Shown: positions 18,157 through 48,497 of the stretch, in pieces | Position numbering within the stretch: position 1 is the first letter of the stretch | Layout: every line of letters begins with the position of its first letter | Assembly (NCBI GenBank): GCA_023444765.1 | Contig: JAEXLY010000159.1 | Location: 1-48,649 of the forward strand | DNA from: Pseudomonadota bacterium | Lineage (GTDB): Bacteria > Pseudomonadota > Gammaproteobacteria > Xanthomonadales > Xanthomonadaceae | Reading direction: 5' to 3' | DNA: 48,649 nucleotides | Notes under the pieces: model-generated | Database searches by the model: none | Seen by the model: the letters and a program-made list of their open reading frames with translations, nothing else | Told to the model about the DNA's origin: nothing | Made by a program: the position numbers and the translations under genes

Positions 18157-18182
18157 TTCCCTCCCACCGGGCACGCCAGCCG

Positions 18183-25460: not shown

Positions 25461-25488
25461 GATGTCAGTTCCGGCCAGAAGCGGACGT
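25461..25488. repeat. 28-bp palindromic site A (spacer CGGCCA)
   Basis: GATGTCAGTTC-CGGCCA-GAAGCGGACGT; left arm has a 1-nt deletion relative to consensus. Confidence 0.75.
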
Positions 25489-25666
25489 TCTGGCTGACCC
25501 GAACTGCCGCTTCGAATCCACTCTTTCAGAGGGTCGGCAGGGATTCGTGTAAAAAACGGCCAAAGGTGAGCTAACTGCCTGTCATAGCTGACTTTCTTGG
25601 CCGCTCCAGCCACGCGTCAGAACGGAGCATTTCTTCTTCGAGGACCGGACAACGGGCCGTAACTCG

Positions 25667-26290
25667 TTATTTCACCTCGTCCCGGTAACTCCGCCAAGCC
25701 ATGCGGAGTACCCGAGCGGAGGACCGCAGAAACATCAGCAACAGTCCACCGGCGATGACCAGATCGGGCCAGCCGGCATCGAACAGCCACACGCCGGCGG
25801 CTGCCAGCAGCACCGCAACACCCTCGTACAGGTCATTGCGCGAGCACTCCCAGGCCGATGACATGTTCACGTCGCCAAAGCGGTACGGGGTAAGCAGCCA
25901 CAGGCACAAGGCGTTGAACGCAAGATTGATCACGGCGGCGATGCCGATGGCCTCGAAGATCGGCACCTCCGGGTGGGCCAGGCGCCAGCCGATCTGGATG
26001 GCGACCGCAACCGCGGCACCGAGGATCAGCAATCCCTTGAACAACGCCACCCTGGCCTTGGCGCGCAGGCTCGCGCCGATCACTGCCAGGCTCAGCAGAT
26101 AGGTCAACGCATCACCGAGGTTGTCGAGGCTGCCCGACAGCAACGAGGACGAGCCGCTGTAGATCGCTGCGGTGATCATCATCACGAAGCTGGCGATGTT
26201 GATTGCCAGCACGATCATCAACACGCGCCGCTGCCCCGCCTCCAGGGCGCGGATATCCACCGTGCTTCCGCAGCCGCACGAATCACTCAT
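25667..26290 (-). CDS. CDF-like cation (Co/Zn/Cd) transporter, TM domain only
   Basis: SSLLSGSLDNLGDALTY, WECSRND, WPDLVIA; divergent from MerR regulator. Confidence 0.85.
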   Translation of the reverse strand: MSDSCGCGSTVDIRALEAGQRRVLMIVLAINIASFVMMITAAIYSGSSSLLSGSLDNLGDALTYLLSLAVIGASLRAKARVALFKGLLILGAAVAVAIQIGWRLAHPEVPIFEAIGIAAVINLAFNALCLWLLTPYRFGDVNMSSAWECSRNDLYEGVAVLLAAAGVWLFDAGWPDLVIAGGLLLMFLRSSARVLRMAWRSYRDEVK

Positions 26291-26349
26291 GATCATGTCT
26301 CCGAGTCGAGCGGGCGTCCGAGGATTTGCGGCCCGCTTCCAGGTCGGCG

Positions 26350-26380
26350 ATCCTAAACCCCGGAGTCGCTACAGAGTCAA
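26350..26380 (-). promoter_or_regulatory. MerR-type promoter/operator
   Basis: TTGACT-N19-TAGGAT with dyad ACTCTGTAG-CGA-CTCCGGGGT, resembling CadR/PbrR operators. Confidence 0.8.
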
Positions 26381-26384
26381 GCCC

Positions 26385-26780
26385 ATGAAGATCGGAGAGG
26401 TCGCGGAGCGCAGCGGGTGCCATCCCGAAACCGTGCGCTACTACGAGCGCATCGGGTTGTTGCCTGCCCCGCCGCGCACGGCGGGCGGGTATCGCGACTA
26501 CCGTCCCGCCGACGCGGATCGGCTGCGCTTCATCAGCCGCGGACGCGAACTGGGCTTCTCGCTGGAGGAGATCCGCAGCCTGCTGGGCCTGGCCGAAGAC
26601 GACGGGTTGTCCTGCCAGGATGTCGACCGTCTTGCCCGCGGGCACCTGCTGGACATCCGGAACCGGCTAAACGACCTGCAGCGGATGGCCTCGGAGCTCG
26701 AACGGGTGATTGGCAGTTGCAGCGGCGGCGAGCGCGGCCAGTGCGCCATCCTCGACACGCTGCGCCACCCGCCATCCTAG
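26385..26780 (+). CDS. MerR-family heavy-metal-responsive regulator (CadR/PbrR-like)
   Basis: MKIGEVAERSGCHPETVRYYERIGLL; metal-binding Cys in LSCQDV and CSGGERGQCAIL. Confidence 0.93.
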   Translation: MKIGEVAERSGCHPETVRYYERIGLLPAPPRTAGGYRDYRPADADRLRFISRGRELGFSLEEIRSLLGLAEDDGLSCQDVDRLARGHLLDIRNRLNDLQRMASELERVIGSCSGGERGQCAILDTLRHPPS

Positions 26781-26788
26781 GTCGGCAC

Positions 26789-27382
26789 TCAAGCGTCCTC
26801 TTCGCCACGGGCATCCTGCAGGATCTCGATGCCCCCTTTCAGGGCGATCGCCGCCACTGCGAGCCCCACGACGAGGTCGGGCCAGGCCCGCCCGGTCCAC
26901 AGCACCAGTCCGCCACCCACGAGCACGCCTGCGTTGGCGATGAAATCGTTGGTGCTGAAGGTCGTCGCGGCACGCACGTTCACATTGGCCTGCCGGATTT
27001 TCTTGAGCAGCCACACGCATGTCGCGTTTACCAGGCCGGCCCCCAGCGCCATCACCATCATCGTCGTACCAATGGGCTCGGCGTCACCCAGGAACCGACG
27101 GCCCACGTCGACCAGGATCCCAGCGGCGAACAGGATCAGCAGCCAGCCGGACACTTTGGCCGCCGACCGTTTCCAGGCTTGTGAGCGACTGAGTGCGAGC
27201 AGGGTGATGATGTAGACGGCGCTGTCGGACGTATTGTCCAGTCCATTTGCGATCAGAGCGCTTGAGCCGGCGGCGACGCCCGTGACCCCGAACCCCGCGG
27301 CAAGCGCGAGGTTCAGGGCGAGGACGATCAACAGGATCCGGCGCTGGTGCGCGTCGTGTATCTCGATCTTCTCTTCACTCAA
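26789..27382 (-). CDS. Second CDF-like cation transporter
   Basis: SSALIANGLDNTSD, FSTNDFIAN, WPDLVVG; TTG start right after czcA stop (inferred). Confidence 0.82.
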   Translation of the reverse strand: MSEEKIEIHDAHQRRILLIVLALNLALAAGFGVTGVAAGSSALIANGLDNTSDSAVYIITLLALSRSQAWKRSAAKVSGWLLILFAAGILVDVGRRFLGDAEPIGTTMMVMALGAGLVNATCVWLLKKIRQANVNVRAATTFSTNDFIANAGVLVGGGLVLWTGRAWPDLVVGLAVAAIALKGGIEILQDARGEEDA

Positions 27383-27383
27383 C

Positions 27384-31559
<4,176 letters not shown>

Positions 31560-31563
<4 letters not shown>

Positions 31564-32840
31564 GGGGTTGCTCCTTGGTTGTCTTGCGGGCCCGGGCCGG
31601 CGACGAATGCCTGGCCGGTCAGCCGCTGGATCTCGATCAGGGCGCGCTGGGCTTCCAGCGCAGCTGCCAGCTGTTGCTGCCGTGCGGCGGCGCGCTCCGC
31701 CTGCAGGCTCGACCACTCCAGATAACTGGCGGCGCCTGCGCGGTACGCGGTGGCGGCCGCTGCTTCGGCCTTGGCCAGACGTGGAAGCACGTCCTCACCC
31801 AGCCGCTGTGCTTCCAGGCGGGCCACCCCGAAGCGGCCATGCGCCTCAGCGAGGGTGGAGTAGAGCGACAGCCCCACGGCCTCCCGTTCGATTTCCAGCG
31901 CTGTCAACTCGGCGCGTGCGGCACGGATGCCCGGTTGTGCCCGGCGGGTGGTGCCCAGCGGGATCGAGACACTGCCGACCAAGCCGAAGTCATCGCCGTC
32001 CGCCATCCGTCGCACGCCCACCTGCCAGTCGAAGTCCGGGGTCGCTTCGCTGCGTGCCAGCTGCAGGCGTGCCTCGCCAATGCGCTGCTGATCGACGAAC
32101 TGCGCGAGCTCGGGAGTGCGTTGCAACCAGTCGGCGAGTACCGCGAAGTCCGCGATCTGGGGCACGGCGAGCAGATCGCCCCCGAGGATCTCGAATGCGG
32201 GATTTCGCTCGCCCCACAGGGCCGCGAGATGCTGGCGGGCGGCCGCCTGACGTTGCCGGGCTCGCGCGCGATCCAGTTCCGACCGCGCGAGGGCGGCCTG
32301 GGCGGTGAGTACGACCGATTCCGGCGAAGCGCCGGCCTCGTGACGCCGGCGCGCCGCAGCAACGGTGCGTTCGCGCTGGTCGACGTCCAACTGCGCAAGC
32401 TCGCCTTCGCGTTGCGCACCGACGACCGCCAGGTAGCGGCGGGCCACTTCGGCCAGGAGATCCAACCGCTGCGCCTCGCGCTCGATGGCCAGCGCGTCGA
32501 TCCGGCTTTGCGCGAGCGTGCGGCGGGCATCGAGCTTGCCGCCGCGCTCCAGCACGGAGGCGAGGCTCAGCGTGATCTCGGCGCCATCCAGGCCGCTGGC
32601 CGGGCCGGTACCGAGCACGTTCTCGACCTCGGCTCCAGCGACCAGCGCCGGGCGCAACGAGGAGCGATCCAGTTCGGCTTTCAGGGCCTCATGGCGGGCA
32701 CCAAACAAGCGTAGATCGGGATGGGCGTCGGCAACGCGAAGGAAAGCGTCGTCCAGGGTGAGGGGGTCGGCGGCGTGCGTGGGGAATGCCACGGCACACA
32801 CGGCGACGAACGCGGCCAGGGCCGCTGATCGCAAACGCAT
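31560..32840 (-). CDS. czcC: TolC-family outer-membrane factor (CzcC-like)
   Basis: Signal peptide, helical OMF repeats, ATGA overlap with czcB. Confidence 0.88.
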
Positions 32841-32896
32841 GGGGGTTGCTCCGATGAATCGAATTGACGGGAGTCGGCATCAGGCCGACGGCGCGG

Positions 32897-33289
32897 TCAT
32901 CCGAAGATCGGAGGCTTGAATGGGCTCGGCAGACGCAAGGCGGCCGGGGGCGATGCTTTTTCGACCCCCATTCGACCGGCGACCGGTCGAGTAGAAAATG
33001 AATCCAGGACCGGCAACACGGCCGCGGCTGAACCACAGCAATGGGCGAAATCCAGTAACAGGTGCAACGTCTCCGATCCGTCTTGATCGTGCGCGTCCGC
33101 CGCGGCGAACTCCGCGCCCGGATCGTTGGCATGCGGGCCGTGGCTGTGCGCGCCCGACGGATCGTGCGCGAGCTCATGCATTTCGCCAGCGGCTGTCATC
33201 ACCGGTTGGAACGCCAACCCCAACGCAAGCACACCCAGCACGACGACGCGCAGGAGCGGCAACAAGAAGCGGGGATGCAGGCGGGTCAT
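32897..33289 (-). CDS. His/Cys-rich exported metal-binding protein (CzcI-like position)
   Basis: Signal-like N-terminus, HELAH..HSHG.H, HCCG, C-terminal PFKPPI; first gene of czc operon. Confidence 0.7.
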   Translation of the reverse strand: MTRLHPRFLLPLLRVVVLGVLALGLAFQPVMTAAGEMHELAHDPSGAHSHGPHANDPGAEFAAADAHDQDGSETLHLLLDFAHCCGSAAAVLPVLDSFSTRPVAGRMGVEKASPPAALRLPSPFKPPIFG

Positions 33290-33696
33290 GGCCGCGCAGG
33301 GTACCTGCGGATGATGGGGTTATACAATTCCGCTGAATGCGTCGAGAGGGCTACAGGGAAAAGGCGCGTTCCAGTTGTCGGCCATGGCACCGCTTGTACT
33401 TGTTTCCGCTGCCGCACTGGCACGGCTGGTGATCGCGCAGCCCCGACGACAGTGCGTGTCCAGGAACTGGTGCGCCTGCTGCAGCGGTTCGATTTCATGC
33501 GCGGGGACACTGACCTCGCCGGGAGCCGCCGGGATGCCCCGGCTCAGTCTCTTCCTGGGGGCTCTTGCCGTTGCATGGGCTGCTAGCCCTTCGATGGCAG
33601 ACAGCAATACCCGCACTGCGCTCTACGAGGTCATGCGGTCGGGCTTGGCTGCCTGAGTGATCCGTGGGACGAAGTGGTGCGCGATGTTCCAACGAG

Positions 33697-33724
33697 ACGT
33701 CCGCTTTGGGTCGGAAGTTGCCCT
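33697..33724. repeat. 28-bp palindromic site B (spacer GGGTCG)
   Basis: ACGTCCGCTTT-GGGTCG-GAAGTTGCCCT; degenerate second copy at 33884-33911. Confidence 0.75.
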
Positions 33725-34028
33725 TCCGTACCACCGATAAACATCCTAGTCGGCAGGCCCAGATCCTGGGACTGCTCGCATGCCGACATCAAACGGCCTC
33801 TCCGTCTCTTGGGGCTTCCGTGTTGCAGCACTTCTTGCACTGCAGTTCAGCGATTGGTGCACTACCGCGATAACACAGAGGTTTGCGTCTGTTTGGGTCG
33901 GAACGATCGGCCCGACGAACTAGGTGCCCCAGATACGCCGCATTGGCTTGGCTTGCTCCCATGCTGACAAGAGGCACGTCGGCATTAGCGCTTCCACCTA
34001 GCGATGGCGGACGAAGGCTCGGGCGTCG

Positions 34029-34280
34029 TCAGCAGTCTGAGTCGATCACTTCCGTGTCCAGCTTGCCCTGGTGGGATGCCATGAAGGGATCAAGCGCCAG
34101 CCGCAGCTCCCTCATGGCAGCCAAGTCCTGCGGAGCGTCTCCCACCTGCCGAACGTCCGGATTCTCGTGACCAAATAGTGCCAGATACTCGTCCCAGAAC
34201 TGCTCGAATGTCTTGCTCCGGTCGAACGTCTCGATGAACCGGTGCGCCTCGGGTATCCATTCAGACGGGGGCCTGCTCAT
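34029..34280 (-). CDS. Hypothetical protein, 83 aa, translationally coupled to SRAP
   Basis: ATG overlaps SRAP stop (ATGA); MSRPPSEWIPEAHRFIETF... Confidence 0.65.
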   Translation of the reverse strand: MSRPPSEWIPEAHRFIETFDRSKTFEQFWDEYLALFGHENPDVRQVGDAPQDLAAMRELRLALDPFMASHQGKLDTEVIDSDC

Positions 34281-35212
34281 GCGGCCTCGCGGTGTTCGTA
34301 GTACGGGTGTTGTTTGTCGTCCAGGATCGCGTACAGGGTCGGCAGGTTCGACGGGGCGGGGTTGAGCCACGCATCGATATGCTCGGGCTTGATGTTGATG
34401 ATCGTCCGGTCGTGGCCCGCCGCTGCGACCTCCGGCTCCGGCTCGTCCGTGATCGCAGCGAAGGAGTACAGGTCCGGCTCTTGGCCCTTGGGGTCCGTCC
34501 AGTGGGAATACAGGCACGCGATGAACATCGGCTCGCCCGTTCGCGGGGTGAACGCCAAGACGCGGTTCTTGCCGTCCGGCCCCTGCACGTTCTCGTAGAA
34601 CACGTCGGCGACAATCAGACCATGCGCGTGCCCAAACTGTCCCCGCCAGAACCCTTCCAGGTTGTCCCGGCGGGCGTTGTACGTGCCCGAGAAATCCCGG
34701 TCGTAGGAGGAAGGCTTGCCCGCAAGGCGGCACTGATAGCGCATCGGGCGCATGACGCGCTCCCCGCCCTCCGAAACCAGCACATGGCAGAAGCTGCCCG
34801 GGAACATCCGCTGGTCGCTGGCCTTGGGTTCCGTGCGGCGTAGCGCGTCCAGCTTCTCCCGGATTTGCTCCAGCTTGTTGGTCCCGATTCGAACGTCCTC
34901 TTGCGCCTTCTTCGTGACCTTGATCAGCAGCTTGCGTTCCGCGTCGGCTACGCGCTTACGCTGGGCGAACAGCTCGCGCTCCAGGTCTGCGGTCTCCTTG
35001 GCGTCCCATAGGCGAATCAGCTCGGCAACTTCCTCGGGACCGTCCCGGAGGAATCCGATGTCCATGGCCCGGGGTGTGCGGGGGCGTTTGGCGTAGGGGT
35101 CCATACCCTCGTCCAGCCAGTACAGCCGGACGTACTCCTTAACCGTCATCTTCGATCCGGTCACCCGCTGGAATTTCTTGTGTTCGGCGCGGACCTGGGC
35201 GGAGTAGCACAT
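34277..35212 (-). CDS. SOS response-associated peptidase (SRAP/HMCES family)
   Basis: N-terminal Cys2 (MCYS), TYNARRD, FYE, FAAITD, GHDR; about 60-aa coiled-coil insertion. Confidence 0.88.
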   Translation of the reverse strand: MCYSAQVRAEHKKFQRVTGSKMTVKEYVRLYWLDEGMDPYAKRPRTPRAMDIGFLRDGPEEVAELIRLWDAKETADLERELFAQRKRVADAERKLLIKVTKKAQEDVRIGTNKLEQIREKLDALRRTEPKASDQRMFPGSFCHVLVSEGGERVMRPMRYQCRLAGKPSSYDRDFSGTYNARRDNLEGFWRGQFGHAHGLIVADVFYENVQGPDGKNRVLAFTPRTGEPMFIACLYSHWTDPKGQEPDLYSFAAITDEPEPEVAAAGHDRTIINIKPEHIDAWLNPAPSNLPTLYAILDDKQHPYYEHREAA

Positions 35213-35394
35213 GGGGCCTCCAAGGTTCGGAATGGGGCAAGGTTAGCCGGGGTGTCGGGGATTCCCTACACACGGACTCGACCCCGCCTGATAGCCGGGG
35301 TCTCGGGGCGGGAGCATCCTGCCCACACCAGCAACGCGCGGCGCACGCTGGCTCGGACAGGCCCCTCCCCTGGACCCCTGTCCGGCCGGTCGAG

Positions 35395-35769
35395 TCATCC
35401 AACCGCGCGGGCCTCCGCAGGGATGCGGGGGCTGCTGGTCTGAATCTCCAGCTCCGCTAGACGCCCACGAGCGCGCAGGGCCTCCGCACCGCGCCACGTC
35501 TGCCCGGCCAGCCATCGCAGGCGCCGTAGCTCCGAGTGCGCGTGAAGGGCCGCGTAGTGCCGCCTGGCCCATGTCTCGCACCCTGCCCGGCCGGACTCGT
35601 AGGTCCTGCAGTCCCGCGTGACGGCCAGGCGCCCCGGAAAGTGCAGCCGGGCGAACCAGCTTCCGTCCACCCGCTCGACCATCCGGGCGACCTCCGTCCC
35701 GCCCACATAGAGCGCGTCGCGAGGGCCGGTTCCGGCAGGGCCGGTAGGTGGGAGCCATCGGAGTTCCAT
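35395..35769 (-). CDS. Hypothetical protein, 124 aa
   Basis: Protein-like ORF (ALYVGGTEVARMVERVDGSWFARL...CRTYESGRAGCETWARRH) co-oriented upstream of SRAP. Confidence 0.6.
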   Translation of the reverse strand: MELRWLPPTGPAGTGPRDALYVGGTEVARMVERVDGSWFARLHFPGRLAVTRDCRTYESGRAGCETWARRHYAALHAHSELRRLRWLAGQTWRGAEALRARGRLAELEIQTSSPRIPAEARAVG

Positions 35770-35999
35770 CCCGGCAGCCTATCCATGGCCGTTTCACCGA
35801 CCGAGACTGTCAAGGACATCTCCTACCGGAGCATCTTTCTGATCGATAGCGGCAAGTTGGCACCCAGTGCGCCGTCGCCATAGAGGCGTAATCCGTGCAG
35901 TCTAGCTTCGGGTGCTGTGCGACCAGGTCCGCCCGATGGGCCCGTCGATCGAGATACCAGCGCGTGTGGCGAATGCTGACCACTGAGCCGGACGCGATT

Positions 36000-36027
36000 A
36001 GGTCTGCTACCGGCCAGAAGCTGACCT
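36000..36027. repeat. 28-bp palindromic site C (spacer CGGCCA)
   Basis: AGGTCTGCTAC-CGGCCA-GAAGCTGACCT. Confidence 0.8.
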
Positions 36028-39033: not shown

Positions 39034-39336
39034 GAGACGATGTGGGCGGATGTATTCGACTCGTCACTGCTCGATTGCTCCAAGTAGCAGTTTTTAACGG
39101 CCAAACGAAGACCCTTGGCTTACAGGAAAGCGTCCGCTGCACCAGCGTACTCGGACGCGGAATCCTCGACATGGGTGCTCGGAGTCAAGACAAGGCGCCC
39201 GTGGCGAATGGATGAGGCCGCGGCGACTTTTATGTACAAGGCTGCTTCGCGCGGCGTTGGCGACATACGTCGAGCGGCCGCGGCTCAATCGCCTCGCTCG
39301 CAATGCGCTTCCCTCTTCCACGCACAGGAACAGAAC

Positions 39337-39657
39337 GTGAGACATCTCCTCCCGTTGTGCTTTGTTGTTCTCCTTGCCACCGGATGCGATAGCCCTTCAG
39401 CGGAACAGCCCCTGCCGACGGTTGATCGCGAGGGAACGCTCACCGTGCCGGCAGACTACGCGCCCGGTCCGAAGACCGACCTGTCGAGGGTCGATTGTCC
39501 GCAGTACCTGGCGATGACGCCCGTCGAGATGCGAAACGAGATGAAAGCGCTGTGCGCGCAGAGCACGACGCCCGAGGCGCGTGCGCGCAACCCGATGTGC
39601 GAAGCGCAGAGAATTACCGACCACTGCGAGCGCAGCGGAAAGGCAGCGCGTTCATGA
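39337..39657 (+). CDS. Small Cys-containing lipoprotein
   Basis: GTG start, hydrophobic stretch with lipobox LATGC, four further Cys; stop overlaps next ATG. Confidence 0.65.
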   Translation: MRHLLPLCFVVLLATGCDSPSAEQPLPTVDREGTLTVPADYAPGPKTDLSRVDCPQYLAMTPVEMRNEMKALCAQSTTPEARARNPMCEAQRITDHCERSGKAARS

Positions 39658-40172
39658 CGCCTACGTCGAGCGCAGTGCGCGCACTGATTTTCGTTCTGCT
39701 GTTGGCACACCTGCCCTCGACTGCGCTTGCGCAAAGTGTCCGCCTCGGGAGCGGCACCGTTTCGATCGGCGACTCCGTACAGACGCTGACGAAGGTCGCC
39801 GGCAAACCAGATCGCGTCCGGCCCTTTCCCCGCTCGCCGTCGTTCACGCTGTACGAGTATTCGCCCGACGGTCGCCAAGTGAACGTCAGCGTCAGCAACG
39901 GCAAGGTGACCGGGATCGCGGACAACACCATTGTCAGCAGACCGGGCCCGGCGGTCTTCAAAGGCATCGAACTCAATGGCAGCACCATCGTGACGGGGGA
40001 CACCCTCACGAAGCTGTTGCAGACCGCCAGAAAGCCCGACCGGATCCGATCCTCCGCCGGCGCGCCCGAGATGTCGGTATATGAGTATTTTTCCAACGGC
40101 CGACAGGTCAGCGTGACCGTCGGCAACGGTGTGGTCAGCGGCACCTCGGAAATACGGGCGATCCAGAAATAG
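39654..40172 (+). CDS. Exported protein with two tandem ~70-aa domains (DUF2845-like)
   Basis: Signal peptide; repeated GD...L...KPDR.R...YEY..xGRQV.V.V.NG.V. Confidence 0.75.
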   Translation: MTPTSSAVRALIFVLLLAHLPSTALAQSVRLGSGTVSIGDSVQTLTKVAGKPDRVRPFPRSPSFTLYEYSPDGRQVNVSVSNGKVTGIADNTIVSRPGPAVFKGIELNGSTIVTGDTLTKLLQTARKPDRIRSSAGAPEMSVYEYFSNGRQVSVTVGNGVVSGTSEIRAIQK

Positions 40173-40263
40173 TCGCCCAGAGTGATCCGCATTGTTACTG
40201 CGACCGAGGCTCGCCGAGCCTGCGCCGCTGGCACCGCCACGCGCGCTGCCAGCGGGGTCGGAG

Positions 40264-40291
40264 AGGGCCGCTATGGGTCGGAAGCGACCAT
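40264..40291. repeat. 28-bp palindromic site E (spacer GGGTCG)
   Basis: AGGGCCGCTAT-GGGTCG-GAAGCGACCAT. Confidence 0.78.
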
Positions 40292-40430
40292 GCCCTCCGC
40301 CTCAGCGATAACCATCCTGAACTCGCCTGTCCTGCAAGTGCATTACGGCCGTAGATGCGGCCACGGCACCACTGTCCGAGAGGTACACGACGAGTTCGGC
40401 GCGCTGACCGAGGTCACTCATGGACGGAAC

Positions 40431-40556
40431 TTATCCGCTAGTACCCGCTTCGGGTAGGTGACTAGAGCACTTCACGTTGCGCGCGCTCCACAGCCAAAAA
40501 AGTACGACAGATCCCCAGACGATCTCGAATGCGATGGATATGGGGTGCTCCGTCAT
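40431..40556 (-). pseudogene. Truncated membrane-protein gene (N-terminal TM only)
   Basis: MTEHPISIAFEIVWGSVVLFWLWSARNVK coupled by ATGA to anti-sigma gene; then runs into degenerate site and stops at 41 aa. Confidence 0.5.
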
Positions 40557-41614
40557 GGAGTCTCCCGTTCGGTGACCGATACGGCGGCCTTCTGATTCGC
40601 AGACTCCGTCCAGGGGAATGCATCCCGCCAGTTGAGCCACCATGCCTTGGGGGGGCGCGGAATGCGCTCCCACCATAGATTCATCGCATGCATGCTGCCA
40701 CGTGACCACGCTTCGCGGTGCTGGGCGTCCGTCTGCAAGTCGAGCAGCGCCGCCAGCTTCGAATAGACTGGCCCGCTGGCCAGTGCTGGATAGCGTGTCA
40801 GTAGACTGAGCAGAGCGAAGCTGTCCGCTGGCGTCGCCTCGCGGACGACTGCCTCCTCGCCGCCGGGCGGACGCCCTCCTTCCGCCATCGCCAGATCAAG
40901 TTGGCGGACGGCCGCGCGGAACGCGGCGCTCGACGTGGTCGCGAGGGGAATGCCACTGCGCGTCGCATCGAAGTCGAGGCCCGATCCCGCTGGCACCAGG
41001 GTCTCCTGCCCGTTGACGCGATGCATGATCCAGCCGTTGGTGACGTGGATCGTCCCCTCGCCCCGCAGGTTGCGGCTCATCTCGAATTCGCAGCCTAGGT
41101 CGACGGTCTCACTGGCACCCGCCGCAATGGCGAAGTATCCGGGGGGCGCCCAGATGCGCGCACGCACGCGCCCTTCCAGCAGTTCTAGACGATGATGGCC
41201 ACCGCGCGTATCCAGCAGCCGGATCCGCGTTCCCGGCAAGACCTCCATGCGGCCGATGCGTGCCACCTGGACTGTGGCCGATTCTCCGGCGCGGGTCGTC
41301 AGCGTCGTGCCCACGTCTAGCGCGGCCAATGCGGGACCGGCGTCCGCATCGACCGCCCATTGCCGGCGCTCCTCCCATTGCAGGCGCCAAGGCACCCAGA
41401 CGGCGACGCCGGCCATGCATGCCGCAAGCGCGATGGTGGCGGCCAGCAAGGCGCGCTGCGCGCGCCTGCGCGGAACGGCCGGCGGCGCTGCCGACCACAC
41501 CCGGTCGGGTGACAGAACATGCCGGTACCGGCGTAGCAACGACGTGAGATGCGCCAGTGTCTCGTCGCTGGGTTGCTGCGGATCCCACAGCGGATCAGGT
41601 CGTTCGATCATCAC
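40553..41614 (-). CDS. FecR-like anti-sigma factor
   Basis: Single TM, then FecR-like LTTRAGESATVQV...LELLEGRV...VDLGCEF; overlaps sigma factor 3' end. Confidence 0.75.
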   Translation of the reverse strand: MMIERPDPLWDPQQPSDETLAHLTSLLRRYRHVLSPDRVWSAAPPAVPRRRAQRALLAATIALAACMAGVAVWVPWRLQWEERRQWAVDADAGPALAALDVGTTLTTRAGESATVQVARIGRMEVLPGTRIRLLDTRGGHHRLELLEGRVRARIWAPPGYFAIAAGASETVDLGCEFEMSRNLRGEGTIHVTNGWIMHRVNGQETLVPAGSGLDFDATRSGIPLATTSSAAFRAAVRQLDLAMAEGGRPPGGEEAVVREATPADSFALLSLLTRYPALASGPVYSKLAALLDLQTDAQHREAWSRGSMHAMNLWWERIPRPPKAWWLNWRDAFPWTESANQKAAVSVTERETP

Positions 41615-42155
41615 CCCTCTCCTCGTGCTGCGTGACGATGCCTAGCGCATCGCGCAGCCGGGCCATGCCGCGATGGAGGTTCACGCGGACCGACTCCGGC
41701 GTCAGTCCGGTCAGGTTTGCGATCTCCGGACCGCTCAGGCCTTCGACCAGGCGCAGCATCAGGGTTTCGCGGTAGGCCTCGGGCAAGCGCCGGATCGCGT
41801 GCAAGGCTTCGCTGGCCTGGGCGGCCGCATCGGGGCCCGCGCCGGGCCACGCAGGATCATCGGTCTCCGCAAGGTCGCGCTCATCGACCGCGGAAACCAA
41901 ACGGTGCCGGCGTGCGATCATCGCGATCCACGGGCCGAATGAGGCGGGCTCGCGCAATTGCGCCAATCGGTCGAACGCGACGACGAAGGTTTCCTGAGTC
42001 AGTTCTTCCGCCCGTGCGCGCGACGTCACGCCCAGATGGATGGCATGCACCAGCGGCGCGAAGCTGCGGTAGAGCCACGCGAACGCCGCCTGCGATCCGC
42101 GCCGCGCGTCCTGCACCTGCTTGGCGATTTCAGCGGGATCGATCGTGGCCTTCAT
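41595..42155 (-). CDS. ECF RNA polymerase sigma factor
   Basis: AEELTQETFV, SFGPWIAMIAR, LPEAYRETLMLR..EGLS..EIA...VRVNLHRG. Confidence 0.92.
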   Translation of the reverse strand: MKATIDPAEIAKQVQDARRGSQAAFAWLYRSFAPLVHAIHLGVTSRARAEELTQETFVVAFDRLAQLREPASFGPWIAMIARRHRLVSAVDERDLAETDDPAWPGAGPDAAAQASEALHAIRRLPEAYRETLMLRLVEGLSGPEIANLTGLTPESVRVNLHRGMARLRDALGIVTQHEERGDDRTT

Positions 42156-42282
42156 GGCCCATGGGGTCCGGGGTGGCCTGGAAGTAGAGGGCGGTCCGAG
42201 CGGAAGTGTTAACACGCCGGACGCGGTTAACGCAGCGTGGCGACGCCGGCTCTTCCTTTGTGAGACCCATCGGAGACCGCAC

Positions 42283-42951
42283 ATGCCCCCCGCCAAGCCC
42301 TTGTGCCGCGCCCGTACTGCCCGTGTCGCGCGAGTACTCGTCGCGTCACTGCTTGCCGCATGCTCAGCGCCGGGTGCCGCCGCCACGCCCGTCGTCGGGT
42401 TGCCCTGCGAGGACTGCGACGTGCCCCTGGTCGGACTGCCCGCCGATCCTCCCGCCCTTGTCCGCCTGGCGCCCGAGGACGAACCCGGCGAGCGCCTGCG
42501 CCTGACCGGACGGGTGACCGACGCGCAAGGCAGGCCACGCCGCGGCGTGGTCGTGTACGCCCACCAGACCGACCGCGAAGGCATCTACCCCGGCGAAGGC
42601 GCCAAAGGCGATGACGGCATTCGCCAGCATGGACGACTGCGCGCCTGGGCCGCGAGCGATACGGACGGGAGGTACACCTTCCTGACCATCCGTCCCGGCA
42701 GCTATCCGCGCAGCACGATGCCGCAGCACATCCACCTGTATGTCATCGAGCCCGGCTGCGCGCTGTACTACATCGACGACGTGCTGTTCCGAGACGACCC
42801 GCACCTGACCGCCTCGGCCGCGCGCAACGCGAACAAAGGGCGCGGTGGCAGCGGCATCGTGGCGCCGGTGCGGACCGCGGACGGATGGCTGGCGCACCGG
42901 GACATCGTGCTGGGCCAGAACATCCCGGGCTATCCCGAGTGTGCGCCATGA
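42283..42951 (+). CDS. Exported intradiol ring-cleavage dioxygenase-like protein
   Basis: Lipobox-like LAACS, CEDC, EPGERLRLTGRV, YAHQTD..GIY, YTFLTIRPGSY, PQHIH. Confidence 0.82.
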   Translation: MPPAKPLCRARTARVARVLVASLLAACSAPGAAATPVVGLPCEDCDVPLVGLPADPPALVRLAPEDEPGERLRLTGRVTDAQGRPRRGVVVYAHQTDREGIYPGEGAKGDDGIRQHGRLRAWAASDTDGRYTFLTIRPGSYPRSTMPQHIHLYVIEPGCALYYIDDVLFRDDPHLTASAARNANKGRGGSGIVAPVRTADGWLAHRDIVLGQNIPGYPECAP

Positions 42952-43553
42952 GACCGCAGCCCTTGGGACGCTATCCCTGCGTCCTGCGCGTGCTGCATTG
43001 GCTGCTCGCCCTGATGCTGGTCCTGCAGTTCGTGCTCGGCTTCGCAGCGGAGTATGGCGCTGCGCGGATTTCCGAGGCGCTGCTGCCGCTCCATTTCCGG
43101 CTCGGCGTAATGATCCTGGGACTGACGGCACTGCGCCTGTGCCTCCGACTCGTGATGCCGACGCCAGCGGCCGACCCTGGAGAGCCGCCCGGTCTCCGTC
43201 GCGCCCGGTCGGCGGTCCATGGTGTGCTGTACCTGCTGATGCTGGCGGTGCCGGTCAGCGGGCATGTCATCTGGGTGTGGATGGGCGCGGACCGGACCTT
43301 GTTCGGCGCACTTGAAGTGCCGGCGCTGTTCGTCCCGCCCGCCGACGAAACCGGCCGCGCCGTCGCCTGGTACGTGCATGTTTACGGCGCCTGGATCCTG
43401 CTGGGGCTCGTAGGCCTCCACATACTCGCTGCAGTACTCCGCCAGCGGGCGCGAGGGGATGGGTTCATCACCCAACGCATGGGGTTCAAGCGGCTTCAGC
43501 GGGTCGGAAAGAGACATCTCGATAGAGATGTACCACTTCAGTCTGCCTATTGA
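42948..43553 (+). CDS. Cytochrome b561 (YceJ/CybB-like)
   Basis: LHWLLA, LHFRLG, VHGVLY.LM..VPVSG, VHVY...LHILAA; coupled by ATGA; C-terminus reads through site F. Confidence 0.85.
   Translation: MRPQPLGRYPCVLRVLHWLLALMLVLQFVLGFAAEYGAARISEALLPLHFRLGVMILGLTALRLCLRLVMPTPAADPGEPPGLRRARSAVHGVLYLLMLAVPVSGHVIWVWMGADRTLFGALEVPALFVPPADETGRAVAWYVHVYGAWILLGLVGLHILAAVLRQRARGDGFITQRMGFKRLQRVGKRHLDRDVPLQSAY
43490..43517. repeat. 28-bp site F (degenerate/hybrid, spacer GGGTCG)
   Basis: GCGGCTTCAGC-GGGTCG-GAAAGAGACAT. Confidence 0.55.
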
Positions 43554-44482
43554 ACCAAAGTGCCGATCCTTGGGCTTGCGCTGATCTCAGCCTGCATTCC
43601 CGAGTTGAACTCCAGAAAATCATGCTCCACGCCGTCGCTAAAGATCACCCCGTAGTCCGGCATGGCCGAGATCAGTCGCAGTGACAGCCCCGGTTCGATG
43701 CGCCCGAACACGAGCTCAGCTTGCGAACTGCGGCTCGGAAACGGCTCGCGTACGGTGAAGTAGAGGTGGTCTGATTCCCAAGGGAATCCTGCGAGCTGCA
43801 AGGCTTTTAGTTCTTCGGCGCTGGCGGGGCCGGCCATCGCCAAGGCGCCTGTCAGGAGGCTGCGGAACCAACCGGTCGAGCCCATTCCGGTCGAGACAAT
43901 GATGCCGCTCGACGAATGCGTTTCACGCCGATCATCCAGTTCGATCGTGTAACGGGCTGATACGTGCGAGCGTGGGCCGATGAACAGGTCGTTGACCGCG
44001 TGCAGTTCCTGCCCGTCGCTGAGCGTGACGCGGGCCATCGTGACCGATCGCGTATTGCGTTTCCCGGCCTGCGCTTCCGGGACGATCTTTTTCAGATCCG
44101 GTACGGCAAAGGGCAGGAGCACGCCGTCCCAACGCTTGGGATCCGGGTTTACCCCGATCACCGGCTGGCCACTCAGGTATTTCAGCGTGTTCGCCACCAA
44201 GCCGTCCTGTCCGACCACAACGACCAGGCAATCCGGCGGGAACAGGAAGTTTGGAACCAGGCTCCGCTCCAGCTTCTGCACACGCCCATAGCGAAGAAGC
44301 GTTGATTCCACGGACTCAACAGCCTGGTGGTAGACGGCGTGTTCGGTTTCATAGTCGGAGAAGTCGGCGCCCAGGTGCTCGACATAGAACCTGGCCTGCT
44401 CGACGGTGTTCAGTCGAGCAACCAGATCCTCGAGCCGTGTACGCCGCGTCACCACGATGATCCGGTGCTGCAGGGCGTCCAT
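43547..44482 (-). CDS. NAD kinase-like protein
   Basis: VVVGQDGL (GGDG variant), VIGVN, AVNDLFIG, SSGIIVSTGMGSTGW. Confidence 0.82.
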   Translation of the reverse strand: MDALQHRIIVVTRRTRLEDLVARLNTVEQARFYVEHLGADFSDYETEHAVYHQAVESVESTLLRYGRVQKLERSLVPNFLFPPDCLVVVVGQDGLVANTLKYLSGQPVIGVNPDPKRWDGVLLPFAVPDLKKIVPEAQAGKRNTRSVTMARVTLSDGQELHAVNDLFIGPRSHVSARYTIELDDRRETHSSSGIIVSTGMGSTGWFRSLLTGALAMAGPASAEELKALQLAGFPWESDHLYFTVREPFPSRSSQAELVFGRIEPGLSLRLISAMPDYGVIFSDGVEHDFLEFNSGMQAEISASPRIGTLVQ

Positions 44483-44485
44483 GGC

Positions 44486-45517
44486 CTACTTCCTCGACGT
44501 GTTGGCTGCCGGATGGGTGAGCTGCTGCAGGAGGTCGGGGGAGATGTTCAGCTCACCGATCTTGCCGGCGTTCTGGGCCAGCTCTTGGAAGGCCGCGGCA
44601 ATGATCGTGCCCGGTTCGGCGCTCCCCAGCGCCAGGGCCTGGAGCACCTTCGGGTCGACGCCGCTGACCGTCTTGATCAGGGCGTTCATGCCGTAGGCCT
44701 TGGCATCGGCTTCGCGTCTGGCATTGGCGGAGCGCAGTTCAGTCAGCGCCTCGTTCTCCTTCTCGTGCGAGATCTTGCCCTGCATCTCCTGGGCCTGGAT
44801 CTGCTGGCGCTTGTCCAGCAGCGCCCGTTCGGCCTCCATCTGGGTTTCCCGGATCTGACGCTTCTTGGTCTCGACGGCGATCTCGGTGTTGAGCTCGTTT
44901 TCCTTGACCGCGCGCTCCTGCTCGATGGCGGCGTTGCGACGCACGTACAGCGCATCATCGGCCTCCTTGAGGATCTGCTCGCGGATCGTCGCTTCCAGGG
45001 CCCGGGCAGTGTCCGGCGTCGGCTTGATGGCCAGGACTGCCAGGCTAACCAGTTCCAGGCCGAGGCTGGGGAGGCCATCCGGTTGACGCAGGCCGTCGCG
45101 GACGGCCTGCACCAGTCCTTCGGACTCGCGCAGCAATGCCTGCAGGCTCTGTCCCTGCAGGGCAGCACGCAACTGCACCTGGACCGCATTGACCACGCGC
45201 TGCGGCAACTTTCCGGGGTCCTCGGAGACGTAGTCGTTGCCGCTGGCCTTGAGCGTGAAGTTCATCAGCGAGGCCAGCAGCTTGGGTTCGGTCACGCGAT
45301 AGGTGACCTGCCCCTGGACAGTGACTTCCTGGAAGTCCGAACTGACCTCGCGGAACATGAAGGGCACGTCCACGCTTTCCATGGGGATCGAGACGAGCGA
45401 GGCGCTGGGCGAGAAGTAAAAGAAGGCCAGACCCGTGCCCTCGCGGACAGGCTGGCCATTGCGGTACTGGATCAGGTAAGTGGTGGGGCTGACCTTGGCG
45501 TAGCGGATGCCGAACAT
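44486..45517 (-). CDS. SPFH/band-7 domain protein with C-terminal coiled coil
   Basis: N-terminal beta-rich SPFH domain (DFQEVTVQGQVTYRV), long E/K/Q/R coiled coil, KIGELNISPDLL. Confidence 0.85.
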   Translation of the reverse strand: MFGIRYAKVSPTTYLIQYRNGQPVREGTGLAFFYFSPSASLVSIPMESVDVPFMFREVSSDFQEVTVQGQVTYRVTEPKLLASLMNFTLKASGNDYVSEDPGKLPQRVVNAVQVQLRAALQGQSLQALLRESEGLVQAVRDGLRQPDGLPSLGLELVSLAVLAIKPTPDTARALEATIREQILKEADDALYVRRNAAIEQERAVKENELNTEIAVETKKRQIRETQMEAERALLDKRQQIQAQEMQGKISHEKENEALTELRSANARREADAKAYGMNALIKTVSGVDPKVLQALALGSAEPGTIIAAAFQELAQNAGKIGELNISPDLLQQLTHPAANTSRK

Positions 45518-45607
45518 GGTGCTCTCCTCGGAAGTTCCTTCCAGGGGTGACGGACCCGGTCTTTCCGGTTCCGGCGCGGACGGTCGCGGCCGCGCAACGC
45601 GTCTGGC

Positions 45608-46642
45608 CTACAGCGTGCCGATGAAGCGTTCGATGATGTAGAAGTGGTCCTCGTAGACCTGCGACTCCATGGCCCGCAGTTCCGAGAGTGGGAACCAGCG
45701 TGCCTTGGCTGCGTCGTCGCTTCCCTTGACGGGTGGCAGGTCGCCGGCCGGGAACTCGAAGTGGAATGCGTGGGTGATCGTCCTGCCGCGCAGGGAGCGC
45801 TCGGGGTGGTCGAAGGCCTCTTTGGCACGGACCGAGCCGCGCAGCACTGGCGCCGGCAGTTTCAGTCGGGTCTCCTCGCGAAGCTCGCGCAGGACGGCAT
45901 CCAGGAGTCGCTCGTCACCCCGCACGAAGCCGCCGGGCAGCGCCCACTGGCCCTTGCCGGGGTGTGCGCCGCGCTCGACAAGCAGGACATGGCCAGAGTG
46001 GATGACGACGCCGTCCACGGTCACGAATGTCGGTGGATAGGGCGCGCCCTCCCAACCCTGTCGGTAGCGCTCGACAAAGCGACGCTCCTCAACCAAGGCG
46101 GGATAGGCTGGTGACGTCTCGCGGAATGCCGTCAGCAGATCTGCGGTCGACGGCGGGACATGGGCTCGGGTCATCGCCATGCCTTCATCCGAATCTTCCA
46201 GGAAGCGGTTGCGCAGCTCTTCCGCCCGCGGGCAGTCCACCAGCGGGACTTCCTCCCGCGGCCACTGTGGGAAGGCGCGCAGGTAGTCGACGCCCGAATT
46301 TTCCGGGCCTCCGATCAGGCCGATGCGCTGGGACGAATAGGCATCCGCGCCAAGGGCATCCCGGACTGCCGACTGCACCGCGGCAATCCAGGCATTCTCG
46401 TTGTAGAGGTGGTCGCGTAACGGGCGGACGAGGATGCGGGCCGAGTCGATCGACTGCGCCACGCTCAGCATCTGCCCGCGCTCAGGGGCGGTCCAGGGAT
46501 GCCTGCTGTTTCGGGCCCGCCCGGCGGACCCCATCAGGATGATGACGCGATCGGCACGCTCAAGCGCACGATGCAACAAACCGTAGTGGCCGTTGTGGAA
46601 CGGCGCGAACTGTCCGATCAGGACAAGGCTATCGAGACGCAT
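45608..46642 (-). CDS. Bifunctional NMN adenylyltransferase / ADP-ribose pyrophosphatase (NadM-Nudix)
   Basis: GQFAPFHNGH (HxGH) nucleotidyltransferase; WALPGGFV...RELREETRL Nudix box; GSDDAAKARW. Confidence 0.9.
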   Translation of the reverse strand: MRLDSLVLIGQFAPFHNGHYGLLHRALERADRVIILMGSAGRARNSRHPWTAPERGQMLSVAQSIDSARILVRPLRDHLYNENAWIAAVQSAVRDALGADAYSSQRIGLIGGPENSGVDYLRAFPQWPREEVPLVDCPRAEELRNRFLEDSDEGMAMTRAHVPPSTADLLTAFRETSPAYPALVEERRFVERYRQGWEGAPYPPTFVTVDGVVIHSGHVLLVERGAHPGKGQWALPGGFVRGDERLLDAVLRELREETRLKLPAPVLRGSVRAKEAFDHPERSLRGRTITHAFHFEFPAGDLPPVKGSDDAAKARWFPLSELRAMESQVYEDHFYIIERFIGTL

Positions 46643-46774
46643 GAGGCTCCCTCATGGCAGTGGCTGCGCCGGTCTTTCCGGCACAGGACAAGCGTACGCC
46701 TACTCAAAAGGGGCGACAAGAGGATATGCCGTGGCTTGGCAGTGTCGCGGAGACCAACCTCCCCGACTTCAGCC

Positions 46775-46809
46775 GAAGCGGACGTCCGCATCGGGTCGCA
46801 TCACGCCTT
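46775..46809. repeat. 28-bp site G plus overlapping extra arm upstream of recombinase
   Basis: GAAGCGGACGT (46775-46785) overlapping ACGTCCGCATC-GGGTCG-CATCACGCCTT (46782-46809). Confidence 0.7.
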
Positions 46810-46858
46810 GCTTCTGGGTGTAGGAGAAGCCTGACCAACCCTTCATCAGGAGTTGGGC

Positions 46859-47482
46859 ATGGCAATTCTTCACACATCTCAGCACCACGAGCCCTGGAAC
46901 AAGGGCAAGCTGATCGGGCAGAAGGCACCGCTCAAGCTGAAAGACATCTGGGCTATTCGCATTCGCCTTCAGCTCGGCCACAAGGTCCGTGACCTCGCCC
47001 TCTTCAACCTGGCGATCGATTCCAAGCTACGCGCCTGCGACTTGGTGAAGCTGCGGGTATCGGATGTTTCCCATAGCGGTCAAATGGCATCCCGCGCCAT
47101 CGTGATGCAGCAGAAGACCGGCCGACCCGTCCAGTTCGAGATCACCCAATCGACTCGCGAGGCCGTGCAGGCTTGGATCACCCACGCTGAGCTCAAGCAG
47201 TCGGATTTTCTATTTAGAAGCCGTATTTCGGACTCGCCCCACCTGTCGACGAGGCAGTACGCCCGCATCGTCCATCGCTGGGTAGAAGATGCTGGCCTCG
47301 AGTCGGGTTCCTACGGCACGCACACGATGCGCAGGACCAAAGCTTCGTTGATCTACCGCCGGACGCGAAACCTCAGGGCGGTTCAGCTATTGCTGGGGCA
47401 TACGAAGCTAGAGAGCACCGTGCGTTACCTAGGTATAGAGGTCGATGACGCCCTGGAGATCGCCGAGCAGACGGATGTCTGA
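46859..47482 (+). CDS. Minimal tyrosine recombinase (catalytic-domain-sized, 207 aa)
   Basis: AGGAG RBS; catalytic set SKLRACDL (R), QKTG (K), THTMRR (HxxR), LGH, VRYLG (Y). Confidence 0.95.
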   Translation: MAILHTSQHHEPWNKGKLIGQKAPLKLKDIWAIRIRLQLGHKVRDLALFNLAIDSKLRACDLVKLRVSDVSHSGQMASRAIVMQQKTGRPVQFEITQSTREAVQAWITHAELKQSDFLFRSRISDSPHLSTRQYARIVHRWVEDAGLESGSYGTHTMRRTKASLIYRRTRNLRAVQLLLGHTKLESTVRYLGIEVDDALEIAEQTDV

Positions 47483-47511
47483 AGCCATAAGGCTCGCTCC
47501 TCGACCGTAGA

Positions 47512-47539
47512 GGGTCGGGGAGCGGCCACAGGCGGACCC
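47512..47539. repeat. 28-bp site H downstream of recombinase (spacer CGGCCA), overlapping a hairpin at 47491-47527
   Basis: GGGTCGGGGAG-CGGCCA-CAGGCGGACCC. Confidence 0.55.
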
Positions 47540-47585
47540 TGCCCTGTCAGACGATACACATGAGCTACGGCGCGCCCGCGTGCGC

Positions 47586-48398
47586 TCAGCGAGGCTCAGT
47601 GGCCGCGATCGTCTCTTCAATCCAGTCGGCGTAGTTCGCCAGCCGAACGCCGTAGCTAGTCTCCCCGTACCTGCCCGGGTGGATTTCGGTGCCGATGACC
47701 ACGGCACGTTTCCATGCCGCGATACCTGCCACGTGCCATTCGTTGCCCATGGCGACCAGGATCGGGCCGCCGCTGTCTCCGCTTCCGAAAGAGGCCTCTA
47801 GCGGGAGCGCGTTCGGCGGCTGATCGAAGGTGTATCCGATCCATCGCCCTTCCGACACGCTGATCTCGTTGTAGCCATGCCGCAGATCGGTTCGGTTCGG
47901 ACCTTGCAGAGGGTGTCCGGTTGATCCTGTCCCTGTGGCACCCCGCCCCATGATCCGGGCGACCTTCCCCAATGCTGGGCCGTTGTAAATCCGCGCAGGC
48001 GTGACGTCCTGAATCGGCTCGCACAGCTGGATCAAGGCAACGTCGTCGGAAGATGCGATGAACTCAAAGAAGGCCGCCCAATCGCCCGACTTGAGCGCGG
48101 AGTCGATCATCTCCTGAGGAGGACTCTTGTAGCCTGGATGGATGATAATTTGGCGTACCGCTCGGGGGGTGCCCCCGACGACGACGACGTCCACGATGGG
48201 CTGCCAGCTGACCGCGTGGGCGGCAGTAACGACCCACTGTGGTGCAATCAAGACGCCGTGGCCCTCGCGAGGTACATCGGCCAGCGGCGGGAAATCGGAC
48301 GCCGCCATCCGATACTGCAGGTCCGGGACGTCGTCACGAATGACGACCGCGTTCGCACCGAACGATGCCAGGAGGAGGAGCACGGCAACACGTCGCAT
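47586..48398 (-). CDS. Secreted trypsin-like (S1) serine protease
   Basis: Signal peptide MRRVAVLLLLASFGANA; VTAAH, DVALI, GDSGGP triad motifs. Confidence 0.9.
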   Translation of the reverse strand: MRRVAVLLLLASFGANAVVIRDDVPDLQYRMAASDFPPLADVPREGHGVLIAPQWVVTAAHAVSWQPIVDVVVVGGTPRAVRQIIIHPGYKSPPQEMIDSALKSGDWAAFFEFIASSDDVALIQLCEPIQDVTPARIYNGPALGKVARIMGRGATGTGSTGHPLQGPNRTDLRHGYNEISVSEGRWIGYTFDQPPNALPLEASFGSGDSGGPILVAMGNEWHVAGIAAWKRAVVIGTEIHPGRYGETSYGVRLANYADWIEETIAATEPR

Positions 48399-48469
48399 TG
48401 GCAACACCCCTTCTCGAGAGTGTCCATTGTCGAGCCCTTGGATTCCGCTGGCAATCTGCCGCTCACGCG

Positions 48470-48497
48470 ATGTCTGCCTTGGGTCGAAAGCGGACAT
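48470..48497. repeat. 28-bp palindromic site I (best copy, spacer GGGTCG)
   Basis: ATGTCTGCCTT-GGGTCG-AAAGCGGACAT; palindrome extends to CG flanks. Confidence 0.85.

Follow-up and report, generated by a model that had tools for sequence, protein, structure and literature searches.

Site-bounded gene blocks in a Xanthomonadaceae genomic island suggest a widespread cassette-exchange system

Our analysis concerns a family of dispersed palindromic sites in a 48,649-nt contig (the window; GenBank JAEXLY010000159.1, assembly GCA_023444765.1), one of 344 contigs of a 3.45-Mb Xanthomonadaceae draft genome of 70% GC (G000, the source genome; throughout, G, L and X numbers denote genomes, loci and metagenome runs). 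Host-like DNA fills window positions 1-19185. An island then begins with a partial tRNA 3' end read from the sequence (acceptor/T-arm; 19186..19232, minus strand) and the gene of a 363-aa tyrosine recombinase, the island integrase (19305..20396, plus strand; PF00589, 87.4 bits), and extends to the contig end. Its cargo consists of a UvrD-like helicase, a czc metal-efflux block, an SRAP gene, a Trans_reg_C/TPR regulator with an S41 protease, an ECF sigma block, a weak NAD-kinase-like open reading frame (ORF), a Band7 gene, an NMNAT-NUDIX gene and, last, a 207-aa tyrosine recombinase and a trypsin-like protease. Between 25461 and 48497 this cargo would form a chain of site-bounded blocks inside a tRNA-integrated island, each site being composed, as we read it, of two 11-bp inverted arms around an asymmetric spacer of 6-8 bp. 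The sites are real, are confined to the island in the source genome and coincide with homology breakpoints, and the analysis suggests that the gene blocks they bound are swapped between unrelated bacteria by a widespread cassette-exchange system.

To score the sites we used a 30-nt position weight matrix (PWM) built from sites of other genomes only, 143 of them, obtained by searching 185,579 species genomes for 16 fixed core bases (at least 120 stretches matched). Five of the six main sites claimed by a first-pass annotation of the same DNA are recovered by this foreign matrix (48470, score 35.7; 33697, 25.1; 36000, 19.1; 40264, 19.0; 25461, 11.8), whereas the sixth, 46782 (4.8), is only a half-site; four island positions reach at least 12, where 200 shuffles give 0.15 on average and 2 at most. 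The consensus given by that annotation, AYGTCNGCTTY-[6 bp]-RAAGCNGACNT, finds 33697, 36000 and 48470 at up to three mismatches (0.04 expected in shuffles) but leaves the other sites unmatched, and at up to two mismatches it has three matches in the whole genome, all within the window. Its five weaker copies fared less well: those at 33884 (-14.9), 40441 (-6.9) and 43490 (1.2) do not rise above chance and those at 39087 (-7.2) and 47512 (0.1) have positional support only; island positions scoring 0 or more number 27, compared with 21.8 in shuffles. The host part is free of sites, as had been noticed (no position at or above 8 in 1-19300), and no position in the rest of the genome reaches 20, while four reach 15, none of them site-like in appearance. 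The left arm with the spacer, which is all that 46782 retains, occurs (up to two mismatches) nine times in the genome, four times inside the window, and the other five occurrences look like chance. Every site is intergenic with respect to the window's ORFs, and none of the Rfam families has a match at the sites of the window, of L058 or of L019, or in the segment 18000-21900.

The consensus of the 143 foreign sites is aATGTCCGCTT-TGGGTCA(A)-AAGCGGACATt, with a conserved and asymmetric spacer, or, with the spacer written in degenerate form, aATGTCCGCTT-TGGGTCR-AAAGCGGACATt. There are two spacer types, T1 (TGGGTCR) and T2 (YCGGCCAG). T2 is roughly T1 inverted, as the first-pass annotation had suggested for the CGGCCA spacer, but is about equally near T1 read directly. 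All window sites share one polarity (plus strand), and T1 and T2 mostly alternate along the window. Site A (25461..25488), the left end of the czc module, carries a T2 spacer (CCGGCCAG) and is a hybrid of a degenerate left arm and a perfect right arm, AAGCGGACGT; site B (33697..33724), the right end of that module, is of type T1 (TGGGTCG), with a perfect left arm, ACGTCCGCTT, and a degenerate right arm. Site C (36000..36027, T2) stands at the left end of the regulator and S41 module, at whose right end lies the degenerate remnant at 39087..39114. These are followed by a T1 site at 40264..40291, whose T1 left half has two mismatches, by the T1 half-site at 46782..46809 (left arm and GGGTCG, then CATCACGCC), 49 nt ahead of the recombinase ATG, and by the best-preserved site, a T1 site at 48470..48497. 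The weak copy at 47512 belongs to a feature that closes the recombinase module on its right (47496..47539, plus strand), namely the hairpin GCTCCTCGACC-GTAGAG-GGTCGGGGAGC with a CGGCCA..GGCGGAC remnant, and this hairpin is also found at L175-L177. Among the 80 stretches listed of the at least 120 found elsewhere, hosts are mostly Alphaproteobacteria, joined by Gamma- and Betaproteobacteria and by metagenome-assembled genomes (MAGs) labelled as other phyla; the palindrome ranges from Alphaproteobacteria to Chloroflexota-labelled MAGs.

Two of the six window sites fold as hairpins (48470, z -2.7; 36000, z -2.8) and the other four do not. Compensated double changes in the arms number 25, against 26.0 in 500 shuffles (97 distinct sites, chosen with the PWM, which biases the test). 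Given this lack of a compensatory excess, the four unfolded sites and the absence of a run of T after any site, the arms look conserved as sequence, in the manner of protein-binding half-sites, and such half-sites fit these results better than a selected hairpin would. It is very improbable that we are dealing with chance palindromes, intrinsic terminators or the operator sites of a regulator. The intergenic placement and the two hairpins are compatible with this explanation, but the shuffle controls argue against chance, the sequence is conserved across phyla with its loop included, and the terminator reading fails on all three terminator-like calls in 28700-48649, none of which overlaps a site, as well as on the missing T-runs and unfolded sites.

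That the sites bound mobile DNA is seen most clearly in the czc module (25489..33696, minus strand), which by Pfam holds two CDF genes, a MerR gene on the plus strand, czcA, czcB, czcC and one 130-aa ORF. The block is 8.27 kb long and contains neither a transposase nor a recombinase. Copies at 95-99% identity occur in G170, G044, G052 and G240 (the latter a record of Luteimonas colneyensis) and, broken into pieces, in G115. Homology starts at 25471, 25474 and 25460 and ends at 33746, 33740 and 33727 in G170, G044 and G240, respectively, and these three genomes have equivalent sites at both ends of the block. In them, as in the metagenome contigs described below, the shared sequence runs from the spacer of site A to site B. 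Its flanks share no common stretch of 150 bp or more among genomes, save for the pair G052 and G115 from a single genus, and the flank in G170 occurs in none of six other genomes of the G170 genus. When the junctions are aligned, the right arm of site A (AGAAGCGGACGTT) and the sequence downstream are invariant in all copies, and the left arm and spacer depend on the flank (GATGTCAGTT-CCGGCCA, AACGTCCGCTA-CCGGCCA, AACGTCCGCTA-TCAGCCA and GATGTCCGCTT-CCGGCCA). At site B it is GACGTCCGCTTTGGGTCG that is invariant and the right arm that varies (GAAGTTGCCC, AAAGGAGCC twice, and GAAGCGGCCC). The block-linked arms of the two sites are exact reverse complements, and the spacer type is kept at each end in every context, T2 at A and T1 at B. 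At the level of sequence, these junctions support the sites as putative points of crossover between modules that occur independently of one another.

The same ends recur in metagenomes. Twenty runs from 14 studies, their sources being soil, gut, faeces, compost, indoor and wastewater samples, contain 0.70-0.77 of the words of a 9.9-kb czc stretch, which is the share expected for the czc block alone. Four of the runs, each from a different study (X1, X2, X3 and X5), have Logan contigs that match the stretch at 99% or more. The match begins at 25471/25472 in X2, X3 and X5, after 87, 8580 and 240 unlike letters, respectively, and in all four runs it stops at 33713-33746 and gives way to unlike sequence; depth falls from 8-150 within the block to 0-2 on its left. 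In X1 the right end reads ...GGGTCG (33713) followed by CATCACGCC, the nine letters that also follow GGGTCG at 46799, so that the czc block there abuts the recombinase block, the two meeting at the corresponding position within the site. The joints listed in the search for excision circles had sides of at most 36 letters, within czcA-like sequence, and were taken as paralogues from other organisms.

Other blocks of the island also have homologues that end in sites. In G178 the regulator and S41 block (window 36002-39065, 78% identity) is flanked at one end by a T2 site in the position of site C and at the other, opposite the weak 39087 copy of the window, by a site scoring 32.1, and a piece matching window 39721-40151 lies on the opposite side of the block. 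Homology to the recombinase block covers only 46783-47538 in G226 and 46781-47526 in G240. The trypsin-like protease ORF (47586..48497, minus strand) has a homologue in G053 whose match ends at 48498, at a site. In the window the first ATG of the longest ORF lies inside site 48470, and the true start of the protease is therefore probably further in; members of this site family can in general give rise to false N-terminal extensions and to small spurious ORFs. The claim that the sites fall at module junctions holds at the czc, regulator and S41, recombinase and protease borders; matches to the ECF, Band7 and NUDIX blocks (65-80% identity) stop at operon borders without detectable sites and are uninformative either way.

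In some genomes the sites form arrays. The complete genomes with the richest site counts are G189 (57 sites), G141 (52) and G084 (43), and in G189 the sites listed (50 of 57) lie mostly in six clusters and are not scattered. Array L170 of this genome (C1:1955600-1961050) comprises at least 10 units of a T1 site, a conserved linker of 28-30 nt, a T2 site and a unique segment. The segments are 285-586 bp long with no mutual BLAST similarity, have 55-60% GC in the main array and in nine cases out of the 12 listed are taken up by a single same-strand ORF of 82-186 aa. The T1-linker-T2 doublet measures about 89 bp and can fold into a single long hairpin or into two hairpins (z about -3); L169, L171 and L172 are further integron-like arrays of G189. 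No integrase flanks L170, and no IntI-like protein was found in G189. The L170 array is not conserved across 19 genomes of its genus, while single cassettes recur alone in five of the 18 others, including G253 (95% and 78%), G260 (84%), G247 (72%) and G249 (74%), and a doublet of about 85 bp recurs at many places in the genus. Among the at least 120 loci, mostly alphaproteobacterial, 96 hold more than one site, and 60 of 313 gaps between neighbours measure 40-70 nt. A second conserved element (CC.CC.CGATAAC...CCTAATC-like) follows the T1 sites of the window (33725-33757 and 40292-40320) and precedes a T2 site in G170 and G044, and probably represents the doublet linker in a lineage-specific form. 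At L173 the single dif-like site of G189 (C1:2151287) lies 0.9-1.8 kb from four palindromic sites (2152148-2153089), and the three largest arrays of that chromosome half are within about 200 kb of it. The 5.5-Mb Pseudolabrys MAG behind L019 (G241) has 367 copies of the core motif (up to one mismatch), spread over many contigs.

Copy numbers of this order raise the question of repetitive extragenic palindromes (REPs) and bacterial interspersed mosaic elements (BIMEs). The sites could be elements of this kind, with a structural role in RNA or DNA, spread by an unknown route, in which case block ends would fall there only because short repeats are hot spots of homologous or illegitimate recombination. 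Copy numbers that run into the hundreds in some genomes (367 in G241), high site numbers in genomes without the 207-aa recombinase, doublets 40-70 nt apart (60 of 313 gaps) that resemble the REP dimers described in the text of a survey (PMC3733652), and the CGTC REPs without a dedicated transposase given in the same text all speak for it. In the source genome, though, the sites keep to one island, and in G189 they are clustered and separate unique low-GC single-ORF cassettes, all on one strand. None of five high-copy genomes has a REP-associated tyrosine transposase (RAYT; PF01797) above cut-off, compensatory change in the arms is absent, and spacers are retained like with like at both czc ends in all contexts. 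Although genome-wide REP-like spread, which the first-pass annotation had named as a ground for abandoning its own interpretation, is what some alphaproteobacteria display, we regard a REP-like origin as unlikely and prefer to read the palindromes as recombination sites.

The recombinase of the chain (46859..47482, plus strand) consists of a catalytic domain only. PF00589, its sole Pfam match, covers residues 43-193 (78.9 bits, cut-off 27.1), and the catalytic set is R60, K88, H157, R160, H183 and Y192 (numbered from the TTG at 46853). The protein aligns with the XerD (1a0p) motifs LRVSEL, KGNK, HVLRH, LLGH and QIY, the aligned residues of which we take to be those of XerD catalysis. An N-terminal core-binding domain of about 100 aa is typical of Xer and Int proteins and absent in enzymes of FimB/FimE size; here the protein has only about 42 residues ahead of its catalytic part, too few for such a domain. 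The protein stays below the NCBIfam cut-offs of the integron-integrase, Xer and Fim-type models, and its best matches span only the C-terminal halves of the models. Relatives fill at least 8000 clusters (the best 120 are 75-94% identical and mostly 206-208 aa long), and the family is present on 408 plasmid records, among them pMOL30 and Pseudomonas megaplasmids. On pMOL30 of Cupriavidus metallidurans (L174, 198530-199156) a 72%-identical homologue sits beside cop genes. The 363-aa island integrase is unrelated to the small recombinase, and as a candidate link to the sites it was discarded, since no homologue of it lies beside site arrays at other loci.

Several observations tie the small recombinase to the sites. 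It is present in 15 of 200 genomes of the family, and in nine of these 15 a site (PWM score 8 or more) lies at most 44 nt before its start or 61 nt after its stop; T1 before and T2 after is a frequent arrangement. A half-site like that at 46782 precedes the gene in G226, G110, G044 and G240, and in G226 the gene lies in a 12-kb low-GC island with six sites of both types, mostly alternating. Among metagenomic recombinase loci, 36 of 80 have a site scoring at least 12 inside 4 kb, an enrichment of about 25-fold. The expected enrichment near the recombinase is thus visible in density (0.134 sites per kb, compared with 0.0053 per kb in the source genome outside the window), but few sites are directly adjacent to the gene. 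At the level of genomes co-occurrence is weak: the core motif (up to one mismatch) is found in 67 of 201 family genomes, in nine of the 15 with the recombinase and 58 of the 185 without (these tallies take in the unpublished genomes G123 and G210, on which no other claim rests). A GC-rich hairpin with an 11-bp stem follows the recombinase stop by 2-20 nt in 41 of 76 loci (L175-L254), against 15 of 122 control segments. Its sequence differs between subfamilies (e.g. TAGCGACGGTC...GACCGTCGCTA), and it may represent either a terminator or a variant of the site that has diverged.

We consider it fairly probable that the palindromes are recombination sites at which exchange between spacers of like type moves the intervening block, the enzyme being the 207-aa recombinase acting in trans. 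Exchange would take place within the spacer or at its edge, between like-type sites on different DNA molecules, and would move the block between two sites; at spacer level, it would follow that the block carries its inner half-sites along and the outer half-sites remain with the recipient. Recombination would be site-specific and conservative, and the chain's own recombinase would also serve blocks and arrays that lack it. The 207-aa protein is a plausible candidate for the enzyme: its catalytic set is complete and its neighbourhoods are enriched in sites, yet arrays and high copy numbers occur in genomes without it. Of the first-pass interpretation, the mobile modules with ends in sites (czc, regulator and S41, recombinase) accordingly stand on firmer ground than the enzyme assigned to them.

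A number of findings weigh against this proposal. In G052 and G115 the czc ends lie elsewhere, at 25529/25528 on the left and at 33704 and 33547 on the right; the contexts are not all independent, as runs and genomes may overlap in organism; and breakpoints within a shared repeat of 20-30 bp could also arise by short-homology recombination. No empty site was found in the G237 and G170 genus comparisons (in G237 the helicase, at 85% identity, is followed by other DNA without a site), nor was a circle or excision joint found in the run contigs, the only run data searched. Directly adjacent sites accompany metagenomic homologues of the recombinase in only nine of 74 upstream and seven of 73 downstream flanks, and the pMOL30 copy is flanked only by degenerate T1/T2-like remnants. 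No homologue of the recombinase (E at most 1e-6) was found in G189, G141 or G084, the Pseudolabrys MAG G241 has only a broken fragment of it despite 367 sites, and of the at least 120 motif loci one holds the gene and one other a 31-aa fragment.

These last findings bear on whether the enzyme has been named correctly. The palindromes might be true recombination sites used by the host XerC/XerD pair or by another recombinase, with the 207-aa protein travelling as a passenger block. Besides the arrays in genomes without the small recombinase, a 326-aa tyrosine recombinase that adjoins a small array in G189, and the distance of 0.9-1.8 kb between G189 sites and the dif-like site of that genome, would suit this explanation. 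The 326-aa protein, however, matches no integron-integrase model, and the site arms are unlike the dif-like sites of G000, G189 and G226; because the arms are palindromic, one protein species is suggested as their partner and not a XerC/XerD pair. Since, moreover, the small recombinase gene lies between T1 and T2 in several genomes, in neighbourhoods about 25-fold enriched in sites, we hold the use of the sites by another enzyme to be decidedly unlikely.

A broader version of the proposed exchange between like-type spacers, which we advance tentatively and with some doubt, is a pan-proteobacterial analogue of the integron, in which a minimal, block-borne 207-aa recombinase would exchange single-ORF cassettes as well as operons at 30-bp palindromes, often as T1-linker-T2 doublets that mimic attC. 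Such an analogue would explain why one palindrome occurs across phyla, why there are arrays that standard integron finders would miss, and why an identical czc operon is found in soil, gut, compost and indoor metagenomes.

The edge of the island has features of its own. The partial tRNA at 19186..19232, at which ARAGORN called no tRNA, is a probable attachment-site copy at the left edge, and the island's attachment site probably lies in the segment 19176-19235, stretches of 48-58 bp of which recur at 85-100% identity, in several places each, in five other genomes. Nine tandem 9-bp units (AGATCCCGT/A; 20433-20513), beginning 37 nt past the island integrase gene, look like iterons or like arm-type binding sites. 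In the host part, runs of the heptamer GTGATTC/GTGGTTC occupy two intergenic places (3701-3725 and 8531-8569).

Were the proposed mechanism true, it would supply an exact and testable rule for the start and end points of metal-resistance blocks and other accessory ones, would allow annotation pipelines to detect cassette arrays that are now invisible to them, and would explain spurious ORF starts within the palindrome; both the recombinase and the site are common. Site strings of 15 nt occur in no paper in the literature covered, which did not extend to subscription journals, strings of 10 nt occur only in unrelated primers, and no description of such a cassette-exchange system was found.

Among known systems, the REP, BIME and REPIN-RAYT elements, as presented in the text of PMC3733652, share with the sites a palindrome of 30 nt that is often paired at a spacing of 20-100 nt, and a high copy number in some genomes, which here are mostly alphaproteobacterial. 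That survey describes GTAG and CGTC REPs with stems of 8-9 bp, loops of 4-5 nt and CCA tails, whereas the stem here is 11 bp, the loop is 6-8 nt, and CGTC/TGTC lies inside a paired arm and not in an unpaired tag. Unlike REPs, the sites come without a RAYT and are clustered in islands and arrays. The survey's text names no recombinase and contains no site strings; its figures and supplements lie outside that text, so that a catalogued entry is possible. The rAID clusters of Bacteroidales (10.1101/471110) also join a tyrosine recombinase to arrays of small genes, in another phylum; this likeness is one of description in the part of the source available.

With integrons and clusters of attC sites lacking an integron-integrase (CALINs), the likeness lies in the G189 arrays, whose co-oriented, tightly packed single-ORF cassettes of atypical GC are separated by an element of about 89 bp, made of two simple sites and foldable as one hairpin; cassettes are likewise shared singly between species, and arrays occur without a nearby integrase. 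Integron attC sites have the core motifs RYYYAAC and GTTRRRY. By visual check no such cores are present in the 143-site consensus or the G189 doublets, which agrees with the first-pass annotation, and the consensus has no AAC/GTT cores. The 207-aa recombinase, moreover, fails the integron-integrase models TIGR02249 (29.9 bits, cut-off 265) and NF011946 (25.4, cut-off 435), and the blocks described here, mostly multi-gene in the window, may be bounded by single sites and reach 8 kb.

A close parallel in layout and behaviour is provided by the dif modules of Acinetobacter plasmids, which are bounded by pdif (XerC-XerD) sites (PMC6449649, PMC13141974 and PMC7399989, in the text available of each). 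Both have an 11-6/8-11 arrangement with neighbouring sites that alternate in orientation or type, and in both, blocks of one to several genes, with no transposase inside, end in sites and occur in varied contexts and orders. The sites had been described as not dif-like, and this is confirmed: G000, G189 and G226 each have a single copy of the dif-like sequence GCATAATGCAT(A/C)TTATGT, which has no likeness to the site consensus, so that the sites are not pdif sites. In contrast to the modules on Rep_3 plasmids in those descriptions, the blocks here reside in chromosomal islands and arrays of Xanthomonadales and many other Proteobacteria, have palindromic arms unrelated to the host dif-like site, and appear to travel with a dedicated small tyrosine recombinase. 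If the proposed mechanism is true, they would represent a third family of site-specific gene shuffling beside integrons and dif modules, with a site of its own and a very small recombinase.

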